From IMG/VR virus record IMGVR_UViG_2721755712_000001: a DNA stretch of 64,000 nt; one strand, 5' to 3'. A program made the translations under genes and the position numbers. This document shows positions 5,403 through 58,729 of this stretch, in pieces (positions within the stretch are counted from its first letter, which is position 1; every line of letters begins with the position of its first letter). The notes beneath the pieces were generated by a model that worked only from the letters and a program-made list of their open reading frames with translations, was not told where the DNA came from and searched no databases. This DNA is from a virus (lineage: Duplodnaviria; Heunggongvirae; Uroviricota; Caudoviricetes).

Positions 5403-5996
5403 CTAAGCAGCCTTCTTTGATTGTCTTTTTTTCCTGATCACATTCGCAGGATCATACCCTCCCAGACTTTTCATGACGTCCAAAGGGATCTTGCTTATAG
5501 AGTGCCCAGCGTCCTGACAGAATCCTCGAAAAACAACGAGCATACTGCCACCGGGGTTGATGTTTACTTCTACCTGACCCAAATTGACGTCAGGCTCGAC
5601 AAACGCTACGCGGCCACCAGACAGAATAATCGTCTCATTCGCACACTCTGTTGCACGCTCATACCACTTTGTATCGAGGGATTGAGGAATTAGCATCACT
5701 GTTGTAACTCCGCGAGCCTGCTCACGTATAGCCGCATCAATCCAGGGGGAGATTTTGGAGTAGGGTGGATTGAGGAAGGCAATTGTACCTGGCTGTCCCC
5801 ATTCAGATTTCAAAGCATCACGCTCAACGCCTATGAAATTAGGCAGCTTCGCATTGTCCTTGTTGCAGGCAACGTCAACATCAAATGTCACTCCAAGATA
5901 ACGTTGAATGGCAGAAAACAGCCAGTCAGGTGTTCTCCAGAGGTCACGAAGAGAGTTGTCGCGCTTTCGCTGTTTGATTTTTTCGGCTGCAATCAT
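5403..5996 (-). CDS. dam: N6-adenine DNA methyltransferase (Dam-like)
   Basis: NPPYS catalytic motif. Confidence 0.75.
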   Translation of the reverse strand: MIAAEKIKQRKRDNSLRDLWRTPDWLFSAIQRYLGVTFDVDVACNKDNAKLPNFIGVERDALKSEWGQPGTIAFLNPPYSKISPWIDAAIREQARGVTTVMLIPQSLDTKWYERATECANETIILSGGRVAFVEPDVNLGQVEVNINPGGSMLVVFRGFCQDAGHSISKIPLDVMKSLGGYDPANVIRKKRQSKKAA

Positions 5997-15582: not shown

Positions 15583-16152
15583 TCAAATGAGAGACTTAAG
15601 AACATCGCGCACCTGGCGGAACTGATCTGTTTGCATACCGGTATGGATGGCAGCCACCGCATCAGCCAAATGTTCGTTTTTGTTCACGAGAACATCCTGT
15701 CCAGATTGCTTACGACGCAGCCACGGTGCTTTAGGGTGTTTTTTCGTAGCCCACTGGATAATCTCTTCTTTCGATGTAGTAAGTTTATTGCCGACAAAAT
15801 GCTTGATTTCGTTTGGAGTAACCTGGATTAATGGCTTATCCACACACGCAAGTACACCGATACAAATACCGTAAGACGTCTGCGAACGAGAGTTTTGGCT
15901 CCCAACCGGTAGCTCACAAAAAACCATATTTGCCTTATCAATGATTGGCTTCGCAACACGCCATATTTCACTGGCGCGGCGCAGATCGTCACTGTTCACA
16001 CGAACGGTCTTTTTGTTACTCCCCGCTTTAGTCTCAACAAGAGTAAGGCCGTGAATCTCAAGTTCGTCCGTCTCAAGGTCTAAAGTGCCCACAGCAAGCC
16101 CAAAGTTGCTCATTGAGGGATCAACACCAACTACGCTGATTTTTTTACTCAT
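15583..16152 (-). CDS. RuvC-like Holliday junction resolvase
   Basis: ISVVGVDPS N-terminal Asp motif, size about 190 aa. Confidence 0.6.
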   Translation of the reverse strand: MSKKISVVGVDPSMSNFGLAVGTLDLETDELEIHGLTLVETKAGSNKKTVRVNSDDLRRASEIWRVAKPIIDKANMVFCELPVGSQNSRSQTSYGICIGVLACVDKPLIQVTPNEIKHFVGNKLTTSKEEIIQWATKKHPKAPWLRRKQSGQDVLVNKNEHLADAVAAIHTGMQTDQFRQVRDVLKSLI

Positions 16153-21025: not shown

Positions 21026-21099
21026 AATCGTTTTTTCAGTAGTTATTGGCCGATGCTACGATAACTCATTAGGCATACCTTAATCTGCATTTGCCTGTT

Positions 21100-21768
21100 T
21101 TACTTATCCCAGTTATCCACTGGATAGATCCAAATAAGAGATCCCAAGTAAGATCAAATAGAAGATCCAAAGAGATCCCCGATCGCCTCTAGCCGTTGCG
21201 GTTACTGGTCTGAAAGGGTGTTGCCATCCACTATGGAGAGCAAAGAAACCTCTGTAGAGAGCTGAATAACCGCTATGAAGAGTAAAACAACCACTCTGGA
21301 GAGCTGTATATATCCACTGTAGAGAGTAGAGCACATTGTCTTTTATGGATAACTTAATGACTTAATTCTTCATTAACATACTGATATACATAGATATATT
21401 TTAAACTCTACTCTTAGTCATGATTCTTATGTCCTTAAATATCCACAGAAGAGTAGAGTTACCTGTTCTTGAAATCCTCTGATTTTTATCCACAGGCCCG
21501 ATCCAGTAATTCAGATCACAAAGAGAACCAAAGAGACCCATAAAGACCCAATAAGATCCCCGCCCACCTCAAACCGTTGTGCCATCTGCCTTCAGACATG
21601 ATCGATATCCACTATAGAGAGCGAATAATCCACTATAGGGAGCAAAGCAACCACTATAGAGAGGAGAAAAACCACTATAGACGGTAGGATAACCGCTGTG
21701 ATGAGTGCTACTATCCACTGTAATCAGCAAAGGCCACCAAAGCCGTCGAATAACAAGAGACATTTGGA
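21100..21768. promoter_or_regulatory. candidate replication origin: DnaA boxes, GATC cluster, AT-rich stretch, about 11 iterons
   Basis: TTATCCACA at 21486..21494 plus two 8/9 matches; six GATC within 21113..21180; iterons of form ATCCACTATAGAGAGC. Confidence 0.7.
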
Positions 21769-22824
21769 ATGAGCGAAAACGGCAATAAAAACATAGCGAT
21801 CGTTGAAGCATTTTCAGAAACAGATAAAAAGACAGGCGAAGTTGTTACGTTGGTTCCTAACACTAATAACACTGTTCAGCCTGTTGCTTTGATGCGTCTG
21901 GGCCTCTTCGTTCCGACGCTGAAATCGACATCCAGAGGAAGAAAGGGGCAAATGGTCTCTATGGATGCCTCTGCTGAACTCAAACAGCTGTCTCTGGCAA
22001 AAGCCGAAGGGTACGAAGACATAAGGATCTCTGGCCTTCGGCTTGATATGGATAACGACTTTAAAACGTGGGTGGGAATAATCCACGCGTTTGCCAAACA
22101 CAAGGTCGTTGGCGATACTGTCACGTTGCCGTTCGTTGAGTTTGTAAGGCTGTGTGGCATTCCGACCGCCAGGTCATCAGCGAAGTTACGCAAACGCCTG
22201 GACAGTTCGCTAAGCCGTATTGCCACAAATACCATCTCGTTCCGTAGCAAAGGCTCTGATGAGTTTTACGTAACGCATCTTGTGCAAACGGCAAAATATA
22301 GTGTCAAGCACGATACGGTCGAACTGAAAGCAGATCCCAAGATTTTCGAACTCTACCAGTTCGACAAAAAGGTTCTTCTGCAACTCCGGGCTATAAACGA
22401 ACTCTCAAGAAAAGAATCCGCTCAGGCGCTTTATACTTTTATTGAAAGTTTGCCGCCTGATCCGGCACCAATATCACTAGCCCGTTTACGCGCCAGACTT
22501 AATCTGACAAGTCGCACTATTACTCAGAATGCGACGGTAAGAAAGGCTATGGAACAGCTGCGAGAGATAGGATATCTCGATTACACGGAAGTTAAGCGCG
22601 GAAACTCGGTCTACTTCGTCATCCACTATAGGCGGCCAAAGTTACGCCAGGCACAAATATCAACAAAAATCGATAATGATGAGACGGAATATAGCCTCCC
22701 AGATGAGAATCAAGATGACATTATCGACGTTGTGCCTGACGAAAAAGAAGGCAAAATGGTCATGTTGAGTAAAGAAGAACTGGCGCTTCTCGAAGAGTTG
22801 CGCAAGGCAAAGACTCGCAAATAG
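21769..22824 (+). CDS. repA: replication initiator (iteron-binding Rep)
   Basis: 351-aa plus-strand ORF flanked on both sides by iteron arrays; call rests on context. Confidence 0.7.
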
Positions 22825-22829
22825 CCCAA

Positions 22830-23300
22830 CCACTGTAGTTAGTAGTAAGGCTCACTATCCACTGTAGTGAGCCTTACTTATATCTGTAATTCGCTATCCA
22901 CTATAGTGAGTATCGTTATCTGTTGATAACCACTGTAGGCAGTAGAATGCAAATACTGAATCAAATGTTAGTGATCACTAACACTGATGAAACAAGGGCT
23001 GCGAGGTTAGTGGTCACTGGGTATCTTGGAAAATTTACTGTCTATAGTGGTTGTTGTCGCCCTCATCTTTGAGCGTATCCACTGTGGCGAGTGGATATCC
23101 ACTGAAAACAGCAAAGGCTTACTCACCATAGTGGATACCCGCTGGACATCTCACTCCAATACTCACCATAGTGGTTGTTTGATGCGAATGAAAGGCTGTC
23201 TACTCGCTACAGTGGTTAGCAGATATGTAGGAAGAGAGGACTGCAGACCACAGTGGATAATGAGCTGATACGAATGCGGTGAGCTGGCTACTCACCGCAG
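22830..23300. repeat. downstream iteron array, both orientations
   Basis: CCACTGTAGTGAG / CTCACCATAGTGG repeated about 11 times. Confidence 0.75.
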
Positions 23301-23312
23301 TGGTTGGTGCTA

Positions 23313-31495: not shown

Positions 31496-31720
31496 ATGAA
31501 GCAACATCCGAATAAGCATATTCAAGCAGCCATTGACTATGCATTAAGTAAAGGCTGGATCTGGGTAGCTGCTGGTGGTGCTGCACATTGTTTTTGCAGA
31601 CTGCGATGCGGTAATCCAGAAGGTGAACACAAAACTCACCAAATGAGCGTATGGTCGACTCCGGGTAATCCCGAAAACCATGCCAAACAGATCAAACGAA
31701 TGGTTGATCGTTGTAAATGA
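31496..31720 (+). CDS. hypothetical protein
   Basis: 74-aa plus-strand ORF. Confidence 0.4.
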   Translation: MKQHPNKHIQAAIDYALSKGWIWVAAGGAAHCFCRLRCGNPEGEHKTHQMSVWSTPGNPENHAKQIKRMVDRCK

Positions 31721-31780
31721 TTTCAAGGCGGCATTAGCCGCCTTTTGCAGAAACTGTCCAACTATCTTCAAAGGAAAACT

Positions 31781-32344
31781 ATGGCGCTTTATAACTTCAC
31801 TCTGACGCTCTCAGGCGTATCGTATGAGACGGAAGGACTGGAAGACGCGCTGTACCAAAACGGCTGTGACGATGCGCTAATTTGCGCATATGGAAACTCC
31901 GTCTATGTAGAATTTGACCGCGAAGCACAATCACTTGATGCAGCTATCGCATCTGCGGTCGACAATATTGAATCAGCCGGTATCGGTGCAATTGTTGAAT
32001 CCGTCGACTCGGCTCTTGTGGGCTTAAGCGATATCGCGGAACTGACAGACCTGTCTCGCCAGGCAGTGGCGTTGCTCAAAGACGGTAAGCGCGGAAGCGG
32101 CGACTTCCCTTGCCCTGTACAACGCATAAAAGGCCAGTCTCCTCTCTGGGATTGGGCTGATGTGGCTGAATGGCTCATGAATAACGGACGACTTAAAGAG
32201 GGCGATCAAATTGTCCAAAATGCCCGAACTTTGAGTAAATGGAATCTGGCGCTTCGAAACAGCGTCTCGAAAGATTTCAACGAAATAGAGCAAATTGCGG
32301 AGAAACTGATTAAACGCCGCAAAGATATTGCGAAATGCGCATAA
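31781..32344 (+). CDS. hypothetical protein
   Basis: Start moved to ATG after AAGGAAAA. Confidence 0.4.
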   Translation: MALYNFTLTLSGVSYETEGLEDALYQNGCDDALICAYGNSVYVEFDREAQSLDAAIASAVDNIESAGIGAIVESVDSALVGLSDIAELTDLSRQAVALLKDGKRGSGDFPCPVQRIKGQSPLWDWADVAEWLMNNGRLKEGDQIVQNARTLSKWNLALRNSVSKDFNEIEQIAEKLIKRRKDIAKCA

Positions 32345-52782: not shown

Positions 52783-55071
<2,289 letters not shown>

Positions 55072-55491
55072 CCGTCGTGCAGCTGCGGAAAGAACGGTGG
55101 AGATAAAGTAGTCGTATGAGCAGCAATAGCGGTCAGCAAACTGGCGTGCTTTCCATAGAGACGTTTTATTGGCAGTCGACAACTCCTGATAAGGCAGGCG
55201 TTTTAACCCGGTGGTGAACGGAGCTGTTTCAAAGTGTTCGCGACCGTGCGTCAGCATGATATTTGAGTACTGACGTTTGTATGCCTCCGTAAAAAGACAG
55301 GTGGCCATGAGAGGATGCATGTCGCGGTAATCAAACCACTTCGTCTCGAAGAGTTCAGCCTCATCTTTACAGCGCGACAAACCAATGTTTTCAGCAACCC
55401 ACTTGTCCATAACAGCGGTATTCCACTCTGTCATGAAGTCGTACTGGTTGTTGTCGATGGTATCGAAAAAGATTTGGCTCATGTGGCTCAC
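55072..55491 (-). pseudogene. 5' fragment of gene split by IS insertion
   Basis: Track ORF 55015..55491 reads across the IS boundary at codon 141. Confidence 0.7.
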
Positions 55492-55764: not shown

Positions 55765-56532
55765 ATGGACGATTTATCGGTATACGCGAGATCATTGGAT
55801 AAGGCTAAATACTATGTTTACTGCCTCTATGATACAGAAGACAAGATGAAAAGACCGTTTTACATAGGAAAAGGCAAATCGACTCGTTGTCTCGATCACA
55901 TCAAGTATCCCGATGACTCTCCCAAATCCATGCGGATCAAAGAACTTTTGGCTAATAAAAAATTAGGCATAGATATTCTTCGTCATGGTATGGATGAAAC
56001 CACAGCCAAACTTGTTGAGGCGACATGCATCGACCTTATGGGGGTCGGAGAGCTTACGAATAAGGTACGAGGAAGTGGTTCCATGATGGGCAGAATATCA
56101 CTGGACGCCTACCATCACTTAGTGCTGCAAGAGGAAACTGAAATTGCTCCTGAGCACGCCGGTCTTGCCTTCCTGCTAAACAGCACCTACAAGTCAGGAA
56201 TGTCCGCTCTGGCATTATATGAAGCTACGCGTGGCGTATGGGCAAAGGTTCCAAGAGACGAGAATCTCAAATATGCCTACGCTACATATGGTGGGCTAAT
56301 AATGGAAGTTTATCAGATTGAATGCTGGGTCAAAGCCGGTTCTCAGCAGTACTTTACAAGGGATATAGCTCTTGGCCCCGACACAAAACGTTATGAATTT
56401 GTTGGCAGAATAGCCGATGAGCATATTAGAAAACTGTATGTAGGCAAATTAATCAAGAAGCCACCAAGCTACGGTAGCCCTTTTGTGAAGGTTGGGGTGG
56501 TTAGGACTGAACATAGTGTTAGCGCGGCATAA
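55765..56532 (+). CDS. GIY-YIG nuclease domain protein (free-standing homing-endonuclease-like)
   Basis: YYVYCLYD...RPFYIGKGKSTRCLDH at N-terminus; 255 aa. Confidence 0.5.
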   Translation: MDDLSVYARSLDKAKYYVYCLYDTEDKMKRPFYIGKGKSTRCLDHIKYPDDSPKSMRIKELLANKKLGIDILRHGMDETTAKLVEATCIDLMGVGELTNKVRGSGSMMGRISLDAYHHLVLQEETEIAPEHAGLAFLLNSTYKSGMSALALYEATRGVWAKVPRDENLKYAYATYGGLIMEVYQIECWVKAGSQQYFTRDIALGPDTKRYEFVGRIADEHIRKLYVGKLIKKPPSYGSPFVKVGVVRTEHSVSAA

Positions 56533-56584: not shown

Positions 56585-56944
56585 TTAACCTTTCTTCATC
56601 AACTCTCGTTTGATTTCATCGGTACGCATCGTGACATCGGCAGCGGTGATCGCCTCATTCAATTTCACGATGTCCTCGATTTCCTGCGGTGACTTCTCTG
56701 CCAGATGGAAAATGGCTGCTCGAATCACGTCAGAACGAGTGAACTTCTCGAAGCGAGGGATGAACTTCATCATCTCCAGCAGTTCGAAGTATTCGTCCTC
56801 CAGTGACATTGTGCGGCTTTTAATTTTCTCTTTGCCACGAGTCGGGCGTCCCTGTGGTCTGACTGGTTGGCGCAAAGGAGTTGTGTTCTTAGCCGGTGCA
56901 TCAGGCTCTTTGCGCTTTGCTAGGTCACCCATTTTCATGGACAT
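56585..56944 (-). CDS. small partition partner (ParB/ParG-like)
   Basis: 119 aa, basic N-terminus, immediately downstream of parA with overlapping stop/start. Confidence 0.45.
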   Translation of the reverse strand: MSMKMGDLAKRKEPDAPAKNTTPLRQPVRPQGRPTRGKEKIKSRTMSLEDEYFELLEMMKFIPRFEKFTRSDVIRAAIFHLAEKSPQEIEDIVKLNEAITAADVTMRTDEIKRELMKKG

Positions 56945-57612
56945 TATTCTTCTTCCTCCAGACTCAACAGATAATCTACAAATTCTTCAAACTCGGCTTC
57001 CGCCTTTTTGTCGCGCTCGCTACCGGTCATTTCAAAGATAGAACGACCAGACTCTTCCGCATCATCATAGACGTTGCGGTTATATAGATTGACTGGCGCA
57101 GACTCGATTCCAAACGTCTCAACAATCTCTTTAGCCGCCAGAATGCGAGACACTTGTGATGGCAAAGCCGGGCACTGGTTCATGACCGCGCGGACCTTCA
57201 CTTTATCGTTTACATTGCGAACATTGTCGATAATAGGATCGATGTCACGTAAAGATTTCAAATCACGACGCTTAGGACGCAGCGGGATAATGATAACGTC
57301 AGCCATCAGCATCGCTTGTCGCTGAATTTCGGAGTCGAAGCCACCAGCATCTACCACTACAAACTCAGCTCTACCCTGAAGCGATTTTAGGTGCTTAATG
57401 ATGTCATCCTGAACGTATGCAAAAGGAATCAGCTCAAGGTCTTCGTTCTGTCGACGGTCTTCACACCAGCTCGTTGTCGTGCGCTGAATATCTATATCGG
57501 TAATATAAACCTTCTTCTTCTTTTTGACTTTCAGGCAAACGGCAATTTGCTGGGCAACGGTGGATTTGCCAGGCCCGCCCTTTGTGCCGCCAACCACAAA
57601 GATCTTGGTCAT
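56944..57612 (-). CDS. parA: ParA-family partition ATPase
   Basis: Deviant Walker A VVGGTKGGPGKST; 222 aa. Confidence 0.8.
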   Translation of the reverse strand: MTKIFVVGGTKGGPGKSTVAQQIAVCLKVKKKKKVYITDIDIQRTTTSWCEDRRQNEDLELIPFAYVQDDIIKHLKSLQGRAEFVVVDAGGFDSEIQRQAMLMADVIIIPLRPKRRDLKSLRDIDPIIDNVRNVNDKVKVRAVMNQCPALPSQVSRILAAKEIVETFGIESAPVNLYNRNVYDDAEESGRSIFEMTGSERDKKAEAEFEEFVDYLLSLEEEE

Positions 57613-57655: not shown

Positions 57656-57930
57656 TGTTTTCTTATATGTGATATAGCCTAAATGCCTACGGCTGCGGTG
57701 TAAAGGTTAAATGGTAGGTTGTGATTAACAATTGGCAATCATAGCTTGTATTTGTCTGTTGAAAAAAGTAACAATGACCTCTATATTACAAGTACGGTGA
57801 TATGCCGTACACAATTTGATAATGCACACGTAATGGGCTATAGCCTTTTAAAGTAATTTTTGAGTCGAAAACTCAGTTTGAACAGAGGAGATTGATGGCC
57901 TTCCTACATCACGGCCATCAGGAGGAATAC

Positions 57931-58200
57931 ATGTCAGCACTAAAAAAGCAGCGCATCGATTTGAGATTAACCGATGACGATAAAAGCATCATCGAGGAAG
58001 CTGCCGCAATGTCTAACCAGAGCATTACTCAGTTTATGGTTAGCAGTGCATCTGAACGTGCCGTGAAAGTTATAGAGCAACACCGTAGACTAGTTCTGAA
58101 TGAAGAATCCTGGAATCTGGTTATGGACGCTATAAGCAATCCTCCGGCACCGAACGACAAGCTGAAACGAGCTGCTGATCGTCTGAAAAGCATGGAGTAG
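57931..58200 (+). CDS. DUF1778/RHH antitoxin (TacA-like)
   Basis: Start moved to ATG after GGAGGAA; small basic protein directly upstream of GNAT toxin. Confidence 0.65.
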   Translation: MSALKKQRIDLRLTDDDKSIIEEAAAMSNQSITQFMVSSASERAVKVIEQHRRLVLNEESWNLVMDAISNPPAPNDKLKRAADRLKSME

Positions 58201-58207
58201 TTTACTC

Positions 58208-58729
58208 GTGAGCAATACAACGATAGAGATTTTCTCTGGAGAGAAAGATTATGATCTAAACGGTTTTGATTGCGGCGAAGAGTCACTAAACGCCTTTTTA
58301 GCCAACCACTTAAAAAGGCAGCATGAGGGAAAAATTCTTCGTGCTTATGTGCTTTGCACTCAAGAAGAAAGGCCAAAAGTGTTAGGATATTACACTTTGT
58401 CAGGTAGTTGTTTTGAAAAGGAGTCCTTACCTTCAAGAAGCAAACAAAAGAAGGTTCCTTATCGGAATGTTCCAAGTGTCACTTTGGGTAGGCTGGCTTT
58501 GGACAAGTCCCTTCAAGGTCAAGGATTTGGCTCAATGCTTGTAACACATGCAATGCGCGTTGTGTACAATGCATCTCTTGCTGTAGGCATTCATGGGCTT
58601 TTCGTTGAGGCGTTAAATGACAAAGCCAAGGCGTTTTATAAAAGTTTAGGCTTTATCCAGCTGGTTGGTAACAACGAGCGTTCTTTGTTCTATCCTACAA
58701 AATCTATCGAAAAATTGTTCGAAGAATAA
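58208..58729 (+). CDS. GNAT acetyltransferase toxin (TacT-like)
   Basis: GNAT acetyl-CoA fold Q..G.G..L; GTG start 8 nt after antitoxin stop. Confidence 0.7.
   Translation: MSNTTIEIFSGEKDYDLNGFDCGEESLNAFLANHLKRQHEGKILRAYVLCTQEERPKVLGYYTLSGSCFEKESLPSRSKQKKVPYRNVPSVTLGRLALDKSLQGQGFGSMLVTHAMRVVYNASLAVGIHGLFVEALNDKAKAFYKSLGFIQLVGNNERSLFYPTKSIEKLFEE

Follow-up and report, generated by a model that had tools for sequence, protein, structure and literature searches.

An iteron-type replicon lies within a phage gene set

The 64,000-nucleotide (64-kb) stretch of viral DNA analyzed here, referred to as the window, carries a repA gene surrounded by short repeats at positions 21100 to 23306. This locus raises the question of whether a phage is maintained as a plasmid and, if so, from which site its replication starts. 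Reading of the sequence alone had led to the prediction of an iteron-type plasmid origin inside a phage gene set.

We defined the iteron by its 14-nt core, WCCACTRTAGNGAG, counted all matches with up to 2 mismatches, and used shuffled sequence as the control. The 64 kb contained 21 matches, compared to 2.8 ± 1.8 expected from the shuffles, and 0 of 100 shuffles reached 21. All but one of the matches (20 of 21) were located inside positions 21227 to 23304. Upstream of repA, the iterons are direct copies on the plus strand, spaced by 21 to 23 bp and grouped in two blocks. Block A (21226 to 21331) contains 5 copies, starting at 21227, 21248, 21269, 21290, and 21313 (spacing of 21 to 23 bp). Block B (21606 to 21729) contains 6, starting at 21608, 21629, 21650, 21671, 21692, and 21714 (21 to 22 bp), and ends 42 bp 5' of repA. 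The copies at 21269 and 21692 have 3 mismatches each, yet both are in register. Downstream of the gene, an array of 11 to 12 copies (22827 to 23306) runs in both orientations, with six copies on the plus strand (starts at 22829, 22858, 22897, 22929, 23078, and 23098, the last one weak) and six on the minus strand (starts at 23038, 23122, 23162, 23203, 23244, and 23291, that at 23244 being weak). The spacing of this array is irregular (20 to 109 bp, mostly about 30 to 45 bp). Its iteron number differs between relatives, in which blocks with one or more iterons have been inserted or lost, and is lower here than in the aligned relatives. The original prediction of about 11 iterons on each side of repA was accurate in number; its statement that they occur in both orientations is true downstream only, since all 11 upstream copies are on the plus strand.

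The repA gene (21769 to 22824, plus strand) encodes a 351-amino-acid initiator of the Rep3 family, comprising the WH1 and WH2 domains. The similarity to iteron-binding initiators on which the prediction hinged is evident from the Pfam models, as Rep3_N (42.2 bits, 1.3e-10) and Rep3_C (22.6 bits, 1.3e-4) both scored above their cutoffs (22.4 and 21.1, respectively). The comparison that had been proposed, with the RepFIB and P1 initiators, revealed homology to both: RepA is 60% identical to RepA of F RepFIB (E value of 5e-143) and 49% identical to P1 RepA (E value of 5e-93). Identity to SSU5 RepA amounts to 91%. The protein ends in a C-terminal tail of about 58 residues, to which the RepA of F RepFIB and the PhiR41_1 Rep have comparable tails, whereas P1 RepA has none. 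No solved structure was matched by the RepA sequence at E values up to 1. An iteron-like sequence is also present inside repA (22620 to 22635, plus strand): ATCCACTATAGGCGG provides the codons for I-H-Y-R-R, including an AGG arginine codon, and recurs in SSU5 and in most of the Rahnella relatives, whereas F lacks it. It is of uncertain significance.

Across the region, identity is 99.4% with phage Cyrano/pLF82, 99.9% with IncFIB-typed E. coli plasmids, and 83% with SSU5, pHCM2, and pMT1. Moreover, the 64-kb window is colinear with Cyrano at 95 to 99.8% identity over most of its length, and this synteny and near-identity place the element among the SSU5-like phage-plasmids. The replicon was detected in 129 of 5,426 complete E. 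coli genomes, at 172 places, all of them plasmid and none chromosomal, and the plasmids carrying it measure about 100 to 190 kb. In public plasmid records, MOB-suite classifies the near-identical plasmids as IncFIB by sequence, which is also the type published for the replicon (PMC7969092). The Cyrano plasmid is present at about 5.5 copies per chromosome, and Cyrano virions have been assigned by elimination on electron micrographs and then quantified (PMC9928086). The genes flanking the replicon are phage DNA metabolism genes, and the element codes for a helicase, a primase, Pol III alpha, and recombination proteins of its own. Repeats far above chance and homology to RepFIB and P1 support the iteron-type plasmid origin in a phage gene set. 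The further claim of a plasmid-maintained phage is supported by the near-identity to Cyrano, the exclusive occurrence on plasmids, the Rep3 initiator, and a P1-like origin core. The element is an E. coli SSU5-like phage kept as a low-copy plasmid via repA and its repeated binding sites. We consider it very likely that positions 21100 to 23306 constitute the plasmid-prophage replicon of this phage-plasmid, with iteron-controlled theta replication of the RepFIB/P1-oriR type and its main origin presumably in the more distal of the two origin units described below. The original prediction correctly marked the window as a plasmid-living phage. By sequence, both replicon and element are already known from the SSU5, pHCM2, and pMT1 group, and the finding as originally stated adds little, because it re-identifies a catalogued replicon.

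The upstream region consists of two tandem origin units

The region upstream of repA contains a complete origin unit twice in tandem, M1 (21100 to 21331) and M2 (21480 to 21729), in which a DnaA box, GATC heptamers, a linker, and 21-bp-spaced iterons follow one another. M1 begins with a pair of DnaA boxes (21104 to 21121, plus strand), TTATCCCAG with 2 mismatches and then TTATCCACT with 1 mismatch; the latter nonamer also forms the second box of P1 oriR. The adjoining GATC heptamer cluster (21127 to 21184) has GATC at 21127, 21140, 21152, 21164, 21174, and 21181, which amounts to six sites per 58 bp at intervals of about 10 to 13 bp. The six GATC sites that had been reported within 60 bp are thus real, and six were reached in only 30 of 20,000 trials of random placement. 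This cluster is the sole spot in the window with at least four GATC per 60 bp; over the whole 64 kb, GATC is neither avoided nor enriched (4.1 per kb). The linker between the heptamers and the iterons (21185 to 21225, plus strand) is richer in G+C and aligns with the linker of P1, RCS47, and PhiR41_1.

M2 carries a perfect DnaA box, TTATCCACA (21486 to 21494, plus strand), one of only two in the window. Its heptamers (21500 to 21559) read GATCC at 21500, GATCA at 21514, GAACC at 21525, GACCC at 21535 and 21545, and GATCC at 21555, so that the outer heptamers keep GATC and the inner ones are without it, a pattern found again in relatives. Both the perfect box and the near-matches that had been predicted upstream of repA were recovered, the latter as three one-mismatch sites (21113, plus strand; 21344, minus strand; 21439, plus strand) and one two-mismatch site (21104). 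No known RNA was found in the region in Rfam at E values up to 1.

The two units are separated by a variable spacer (21332 to 21485) with a GC content of 28% overall, 22 to 28% at about 21335 to 21440, and 20% in the 60 bp lowest in GC. Within it are a sigma-70-like site (21373 to 21400, plus strand), a 12-bp perfect inverted repeat (21404 to 21415 and 21449 to 21460), and two DnaA-box-like nonamers (21344 to 21352, minus strand; 21439 to 21447, plus strand). The AT-rich stretch noted in the original prediction does exist, but it is a variable spacer between M1 and M2 and not a conserved part of the origin. Compared to the 28% GC seen here, the spacer has 33 to 40% in Rahnella and 41 to 53% in SSU5, pHCM2, pMT1, Erwinia, and Pantoea, which makes it AT-rich in the Cyrano/window lineage only. 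Furthermore, 51% of the spacer columns are invariant among 9 relatives, the lowest value of any segment, compared to 74 to 84% for the cores and iteron blocks. A role as a general unwinding element was rejected on account of this lineage-dependent GC content and low conservation.

At the junction of the last two iterons of block B (B5/B6), we identified a candidate repA promoter with the extended -10 element TGCTACTAT (21703 to 21711, plus strand). Of 46 double-module loci, 43 have the motif TGnTAnnAT, in every match TGnTAnTAT, between the last two iterons of block B. A two-hexamer promoter scan did not pick up positions 21703 to 21711 and placed its best match in the lineage-specific spacer. 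We infer from the sequence that TGCTACTAT may serve as the repA promoter.

The replicon shares its parts with RepFIB and P1

SSU5, pHCM2 of S. Typhi, pMT1/pFra of Y. pestis, and Cyrano/pLF82 have the same replicon, and all of them agree in the two-module layout upstream of repA and in the array downstream. Outside this group, one close known system is the RepFIB basic replicon of F, P307, and pO157, along with REPI of pColV-K30. As in the window, a DnaA box and five GATC heptamers precede the five upstream repeats of F RepFIB, and control repeats in both orientations occupy the downstream side; however, F has one origin core where two stand in tandem here. The iterons of F share the CTGTAG centre with those of the window and differ in the rest, so that incompatibility with F RepFIB is doubtful and should not be assumed.

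The P1 replicon (oriR with incC, repA, and incA) has the same order of parts, and its origin core is homologous in DNA. Seven cores (M1 and M2 of the window, M1 and M2 of SSU5, P1 oriR, RCS47, and PhiR41_1) align over the DnaA box, heptamers, and linker, and M1 equals P1 over 22 nt counted from the second DnaA box. In the P1 record, the corresponding parts are annotated as a DnaA site, five Dam sites, the incC iterons, PrepA, and the incA iterons. In both elements the downstream array starts with direct copies and continues with mainly inverted ones, and both phages lysogenize as a plasmid. Conversely, the P1 iteron GATGTGTGCTGGAGGGAAA is unrelated to the one found here. P1 has 5 iterons in its single unit and 9 more in incA, compared to 5 plus 6 upstream and 11 to 12 downstream in the window, and P1 parAB adjoins incA, whereas parA lies 34 kb off in the window.

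The upstream repeats of F RepFIB (BCDD') belong to the origin, and its downstream repeats (E-K) to control and incompatibility (PMC11983097). By analogy, block A would hold the iterons of the origin, as BCDD'D'' do in RepFIB and incC does in P1, and the downstream array would serve copy number control, like P1 incA and RepFIB repeats E-K. Block B would be the repA operator and possibly a second origin.

A working scheme can be drawn from P1 and RepFIB. RepA monomers would bind to the iterons of the origin and, jointly with host DnaA at the neighboring box, would open the GATC heptamer region; the P1 origin is opened by DnaA with strong help from RepA (PMC5043065). Firing would require Dam methylation of the heptamer GATC sites, and after passage of the fork the hemimethylated origin would be held silent by SeqA. 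RepA bound to the promoter-proximal iterons would repress its own promoter, for which TGCTACTAT is the candidate. Finally, pairing of the downstream array with the origin iterons by RepA (handcuffing) would keep the element at few copies per chromosome. Methylation dependence was reportedly described for P1 by Abeles and Austin in 1987, and Gammie and Crosa are said to have described a role of methylation in REPI of pColV-K30 in 1991 (both papers are listed in PMC2865523).

M1 is the presumed main origin

Fifty loci, distributed over eight named genera (Kluyvera, Buttiauxella, Yersinia, Rahnella, Erwinia, Pantoea, Cedecea, and Xenorhabdus), share the tandem two-module origin. Across these double-module loci, M1 has more GATC sites than M2 in 44 and fewer in 1. 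The six GATC of M1 are invariant in 9 relatives amid varying bases, which is consistent with Dam dependence. Among 13 representatives from the eight genera, nearly all have five in-register GATC heptamers in M1, the sole exception being one Xenorhabdus locus with one GATC missing. In M2, the DnaA box is retained in nearly all sampled lineages, as is GATC at heptamers 1, 2, and 5. From these sequence comparisons, M1 is taken to be the main origin and M2 chiefly the repA operator, although M2, with a DnaA box and three or four GATC, may still fire.

The reverse assignment, in which M2 is the firing origin and M1 is auxiliary or redundant, for example as a RepA/DnaA sink or a backup origin, appears unlikely to us. 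M2, not M1, corresponds to P1 oriR by position, since it lies directly before repA, as does the lone core in P1, RCS47, PhiR41_1, and about 25 Pantoea loci; however, M1 resembles the P1/F-type core more closely (nhmmer scores of 115 for M1 and 89 for M2). The perfect DnaA box belongs to M2 alone among the modules. A single heptamer without GATC is tolerated in single-origin replicons too (GGTCC in P1, GAACC in RCS47), but in M2 the GATC is absent at heptamer 4 in all sampled lineages and at heptamer 3 in most, lost by different substitutions in different lineages, whereas M1 keeps its five in nearly all. The M2 core is conserved as well as the M1 core (75% and 74% invariant columns in 9 relatives, respectively), yet in two relatives (L051 and L028) no M2 core is recognizable, while the promoter-proximal iterons and an M1 with five iterons and five or six GATC are still present.

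The conservation of the M2 core exceeds the needs of a mere operator. Both modules might be working origins, M1 fully gated by Dam and SeqA and M2 less sequestered, so that M2 could serve under abnormal methylation, e.g., immediately upon infection, during rapid amplification, or in hosts deficient in dam. We regard this two-origin arrangement as doubtful. It would fit the double layout with the same asymmetry in 50 loci of eight genera, and no plasmid with one module only was seen in the SSU5/pHCM2/pMT1 group, where 334 records have at least 80% of the upstream region within a single match; the partial upstream matches are other replicon types that share the origin core alone. The argument is, however, purely comparative, the M2 core has been dropped by some relatives, and the distance between M1 and M2 varies from about 200 to 408 bp between loci, with no conserved helical phasing. 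In addition, the double layout also occurs on Rahnella and Pantoea plasmids not known as phages, and thus does not represent an adaptation to the life cycle of a phage.

One may speculate, at similarly long odds, that a large enterobacterial clade of RepFIB-like replicons, among them those of pMT1, pHCM2, and SSU5-like phage-plasmids, carries two tandem P1-type units with a conserved division of labor, the distal one fully methylation gated and the proximal one acting as operator and methylation-relaxed second origin. If true, such a division would form a layer of copy number or establishment control of which we found no description for iteron plasmids, and functionally distinct units would extend the P1/RepFIB model of iteron control in a small but real way. 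The tandem duplication is the sole mildly novel point of an otherwise known replicon. We found no description of a tandem origin in the literature, in a search outside which the primary pMT1 and RepFIB replicon papers lay, and nothing relevant in the literature on pMT1 iterons.

A lytic-phase phage origin, instead of or besides the plasmid origin, is very improbable. The element encodes the replication and recombination proteins listed above and has no lytic origin assigned, but the whole cassette is homologous to the plasmid-mode origins P1 oriR and F RepFIB and also occurs on Pantoea and Rahnella plasmids. Moreover, at this locus sister phage-plasmids have another RepA and another set of iterons, as expected of an exchangeable plasmid maintenance module. 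In PhiR41_1, CMS-2020a, and the Klebsiella pKpn-type SSU5-like phage-plasmids, the replicon likewise lies between a 214-amino-acid gene (ASCH in the Cyrano record) and a cra-like gene, with flanks up to 97% identical. The origin core beside the 214-amino-acid gene is common to the PhiR41_1 type (70 to 79% identity), which differs in a RepA of 49% identity, iterons of the sequence GTATGCTGTCAGCGG, and a single origin unit. That the repeats arose by chance or form a purely transcriptional operator, with replication starting elsewhere, can practically be dismissed, given 21 iteron matches where shuffles yield 2.8 and never 21, the homology to the mapped P1 oriR and incA, and the retention of these features across genera.

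The downstream array contains a conserved motif

Within the downstream array we noted a conserved motif that is not an iteron (22964 to 23022). It includes a 16-bp palindrome, GTTAGTGATCACTAAC (22966 to 22981), and a degenerate copy, GTTAGTGGTCAC (23009 to 23020). Compared to the Tus Ter core, the motif agrees at 9 of 11 positions, and because of the two core mismatches we do not claim a Ter site. A half-iteron for RepA dimers is unlikely, as the motif is also present in PhiR41_1 despite its different iterons.

The medical relevance of the replicon is by association, since pMT1 of Yersinia pestis and pHCM2 of Salmonella Typhi are maintained by the same replicon. Carriage of resistance genes has also been reported for phage-plasmids of the SSU5 group (PMC9600943; bioRxiv 10.1101/2025.09.12.675607). 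Curing cassettes have been tested on F RepFIB (PMC11983097), and a parts map comprising the origin units, candidate promoter, control array, and conserved motif is useful for the design of such cassettes.

Methylation and maintenance genes of the element

Enterobacterial hosts normally supply Dam. The element itself encodes a phage-type N6-adenine methyltransferase of the Dam family (5403 to 5996, minus strand), with matches to Pfam PF05869 (2.4e-38) and TIGR01712 (114 bits; cutoff, 97), in agreement with the Dam-like methylase originally proposed. Its GATC specificity is putative, and self-supplied methylation of the origin is possible.

Two toxin-antitoxin candidates had been named. We found a TacA-like antitoxin (57892 to 58200, plus strand) followed by a GNAT acetyltransferase toxin (58208 to 58729, plus strand). 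The second candidate, "HicAB" (31496 to 32344), goes back to the annotation of the Cyrano record alone and is not supported as a toxin-antitoxin pair, since neither Pfam nor PHROGs returned such a name.

The predicted parA was located at 56944 to 57612 (minus strand). It encodes a small ParA ATPase and forms a partition operon (56585 to 57612, minus strand) with an overlapping gene for a 119-amino-acid partner (56585 to 56944, minus strand), which is probably a centromere-binding adaptor. The Cyrano record names this partner RelE/ParE, a name without family support. According to Youngren et al. in 2000, the par system of pMT1 is reportedly of the P1 type, in contrast to the small ParA encoded here.

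A RepFIB/P1-type replicon within a phage gene set

The sole long open reading frame of the interval, repA (21769-22824, + strand), encodes 351 amino acids and is set among repeats. Comparing its product with the RepFIB and P1 initiators had been proposed as a check. RepA was 60% identical to the plasmid F RepFIB initiator (E 5e-143) and 49% identical to P1 RepA (E 5e-93), and it matched the Pfam families Rep3_N and Rep3_C, both above their cut-offs. P1 RepA lacks its C-terminal tail of about 58 residues, whereas F RepFIB RepA and PhiR41_1 Rep have a comparable one.

The region was 99.4% identical to Escherichia phage Cyrano, the former "plasmid" pLF82, and the window is colinear with Cyrano across most of its length. 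Several E. coli and E. marmotae plasmids of about 100 to 170 kb were 99.9% identical. Identity was 83% to Salmonella phage SSU5 and about 83% to pHCM2 of S. Typhi, pMT1-type plasmids of Y. pestis, and plasmids of Enterobacter, Citrobacter, and Raoultella. All related plasmid records examined were typed IncFIB, and all but one were non-mobilizable. Among 5,426 complete E. coli genomes, 129 carried the region, in 172 places, all of them plasmid. The genes neighboring repA serve phage DNA metabolism (SbcCD, RuvC, ribonucleotide reductase, gp32-like SSB, UvsY, and RecA). These results bear out the original prediction of a plasmid-maintained phage; the replicon and its family were known before, as was the element's status as a phage-plasmid. 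Cyrano is present at about 5.5 copies per chromosome; on electron micrographs, virions were attributed to it by elimination, and they were quantified (PMC9928086).

Other SSU5-like phage-plasmids (PhiR41_1, CMS-2020a, and the Klebsiella pKpn type) have a different RepA and different iterons, but the genes on either side are common to them and the window, as is the DnaA-box/GATC origin core, at 70 to 79% identity (window 21026-21200 compared with L015 and Klebsiella plasmids). This combination suggests that replicon cassettes are swapped by recombination inside two conserved stretches, the origin core and the cra-like gene.

Iterons, DnaA boxes, and GATC sites

The iteron core is 14 nt long (WCCACTRTAGNGAG). 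Allowing up to two mismatches, we detected 21 matches in the 64-kb window, against 2.8 ± 1.8 expected from dinucleotide-preserving shuffles. Twenty of these, and all 15 matches with at most one mismatch, lie within 21227-23304. Upstream of repA, eleven copies form two blocks with a spacing of 21 to 23 bp: five in block A (starts 21227, 21248, 21269, 21290, and 21313) and six in block B (21608, 21629, 21650, 21671, 21692, and 21714). Downstream, six direct copies on the + strand (22829, 22858, 22897, 22929, 23078, and a weak one at 23098) are accompanied by six inverted copies on the − strand (23038, 23122, 23162, 23203, a weak one at 23244, and 23291). The predicted iteron numbers therefore held on both sides of repA (11 upstream and 12 downstream, weak copies included), whereas the predicted mixture of orientations applies only downstream, every upstream copy being on the + strand.

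The predicted perfect DnaA box (TTATCCACA) lies at 21486-21494, and boxes with one mismatch were located at 21113, 21344 (− strand), and 21439. The sole other perfect copy in the window, at 15836-15844, has no obvious origin context. The GATC cluster was likewise recovered, with six sites within 58 bp (21127-21184). Elsewhere in the window, no 60-bp stretch reaches four, and random placement produced such a cluster in 30 of 20,000 trials.

Two tandem origin units upstream of repA

According to the P1 record, the left end of P1 oriR reads cTTATCCACATTATCCACTGGATAGATCCA and continues with GATC heptamers, GATCCCTGATCG, a G+C-richer linker, and the incC iterons. Window 21100-21225 is recognizably the same sequence. 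A second whole origin unit, more diverged, was found at 21480-21605 ahead of block B, with the same order of DnaA box, heptamer series, linker, and iterons. Seven cores (both from the window, both from SSU5, and those of P1, RCS47, and PhiR41_1) align throughout. The eleven upstream iterons therefore represent two tandem origin units, 381 bp apart. The distal unit, M1 (21100-21331), contains a degenerate-plus-good pair of DnaA boxes, six GATC sites, and five iterons; the proximal unit, M2 (21480-21729), contains the perfect DnaA box, the heptamers GATCC, GATCA, GAACC, GACCC, GACCC, and GATCC, and six iterons.

We compared nine relatives: the window, SSU5, pHCM2, pMT1, Enterobacter, Raoultella, Citrobacter, and two divergent E. 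coli plasmids. Invariant columns made up 74 to 84% of both cores and both iteron blocks, compared with 51% of the spacer. All six GATC sites of M1 were invariant, while the intervening bases varied. A core profile search was then applied to 80 loci encoding RepA relatives (62 to 91% identity, one genome per species). Two modules were present in 50 loci, reference loci counted too, and double-module loci came from Kluyvera, Buttiauxella, Yersinia, Rahnella, Erwinia, Pantoea, Cedecea, and Xenorhabdus. P1, F RepFIB, RCS47, PhiR41_1, and a separate Pantoea clade have a single module. Across the 50 loci, M1 had more GATC sites than M2 in 44, as many in 5, and fewer in 1 (means, 5.6 and 3.9). Among 13 representatives, nearly all M1 units had in-register GATC at all five heptamers. 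M2 retained it at heptamers 1, 2, and 5; heptamer 4 lacked it in 13 of 13 and heptamer 3 in most, with substitutions varying by lineage (GAACC, GACCC, GTTCC, GGCCA, and GGTCA). No M2 core was recognizable in two relatives' loci, L051 (Pantoea) and L028 (Phytobacter), which retain M1 with five iterons plus a promoter-proximal iteron block.

M1 may serve mainly as the origin and M2 as an operator, since M1 matches the family core better, its GATC sites are almost completely conserved, and it persists in loci that have lost the M2 core. The assignment remains uncertain: M2 sits in the P1-like position and its DnaA box and three GATC sites are conserved across genera. We found no published description of the tandem duplication or the conserved GATC asymmetry in the literature covered, and we do not claim the tandem origin as new.

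The predicted AT-rich stretch upstream of repA is present (22 to 28% GC around 21335-21440) and corresponds to the spacer between M1 and M2. Spacer GC is 28% in the window, 33 to 40% in Rahnella, and 41 to 53% in other relatives. The AT-richness is lineage specific, and the stretch is therefore not a conserved unwinding element. Within the spacer, 21373-21460 contains the region's best sigma-70-like match (TTAACA, 16 nt, TATATT; + strand), with a perfect inverted repeat of 12 bp immediately after it (21404-21415/21449-21460; RNA fold, −20 kcal/mol; z = −3.35). Both are absent from SSU5, pHCM2, and pMT1.

A candidate repA promoter and the downstream array

The last two block B iterons, B5 and B6, are bridged by GAGTGCTACTATCCACTG, which includes the extended −10 sequence TGCTACTAT at 21703-21711. 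Of 46 double-module loci, 43 have TGnTAnnAT, in every match TGnTAnTAT, at this junction, typically 63 nt upstream of the start codon. We consider TGCTACTAT a candidate repA promoter, although a simple two-hexamer promoter scan missed it. According to the P1 record, PrepA is likewise embedded in the incC iterons, and this placement would imply autorepression by RepA.

In layout, the downstream array is similar to P1 incA: direct copies come first, then mainly inverted ones. Alignment of window 22827-23306 with loci L004 and L007-L012 of relatives showed that segments of tens of bp, each carrying at least one iteron, have been gained or lost. In iteron number the window falls below the aligned relatives, and E. 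coli CT01 has several more; the differing numbers might set different copy numbers. In F RepFIB, control and the displacement of a resident replicon are exerted by repeats E-K, downstream, and the upstream BCDD' repeats belong with the origin (PMC11983097).

A conserved non-iteron 12-mer, GTGRTYACWAAC, was also seen within the array (22964-23022), and likewise at L015 2422, L017 2782, L018-L026, L038-L045, L055, and L062. In the window it forms a perfect 16-bp palindrome with a central GATC, GTTAGTGATCACTAAC, accompanied by a second, degenerate copy. Of the 80 RepA-relative loci, 17 have the 12-mer, invariably downstream of repA and often paired about 40 bp apart, with 24 matches against about 1 expected by chance by our estimate. 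PhiR41_1 also has it, though its iterons differ from those of the window. Within repA, an iteron-like sequence at 22620-22635 uses an AGG arginine codon (ATC CAC TAT AGG CGG). SSU5, pHCM2, pMT1, and most Rahnella relatives have the same codons, which are variable in Erwinia, Pantoea, and F; the sequence may be a genuine RepA site inside the gene or simply reflect shared ancestry.

Proposed mode of replication

By its homology and anatomy, the region is most likely a RepFIB/P1-type iteron-controlled theta replicon. By analogy with P1 and RepFIB, RepA would bind the origin iterons as monomers and, with host DnaA occupying the neighboring box, open the GATC-heptamer region, reportedly the place of opening in a P1 study. 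Dam methylation would be required for firing, and hemimethylation would lead to sequestration by SeqA; model replicons are said to depend on methylation in titles of papers cited by PMC2865523. RepA bound to the B iterons would repress repA, and RepA pairing the downstream array with the origin iterons would limit copy number. Opening of the P1 origin depends on DnaA, aided by RepA (PMC5043065).

The predicted Dam-like methylase is encoded at 5403-5996 (− strand) and belongs to the phage Dam family (PF05869 and TIGR01712). The element could methylate its own origin but would not need to, since Dam is present in its usual hosts.

Maintenance and accessory genes

The prediction had also listed parA and two toxin-antitoxin candidates. 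ParA (56944-57612, − strand) is a small ParA. A TacA-like antitoxin and GNAT toxin pair (57892-58729) is well supported, whereas the "HicAB" pair (31496-32344) found no support from Pfam or PHROGs names. A 119-amino-acid gene (56585-56944) overlaps the end of parA, downstream of it. The Cyrano record calls it a "RelE/ParE putative toxin," but it has no Pfam, NCBIfam, or named PHROG match; from its position, it is more plausibly the DNA-binding partner of ParA, a partition adaptor.

Adjoining the par operon, segment 55664-56586 is absent from Cyrano and holds a 255-amino-acid open reading frame (55765-56532) with a LEM-3-like GIY-YIG nuclease domain. An IS21-family element (53118-55072; istA, 53204-54226; istB, 54223-55005) is inserted relative to Cyrano and splits the CYRAN_31 homologue. 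At the junction, a 4-bp overlap in the Cyrano coordinates fits a target duplication. Finally, four tRNA genes (Ser-tga, Thr-tgt, Tyr-gta, and Asn-gtt) lie at 45184-45837 on the − strand, compared with three (Asn, Thr, and Ser) annotated in the matching area of the Cyrano record.
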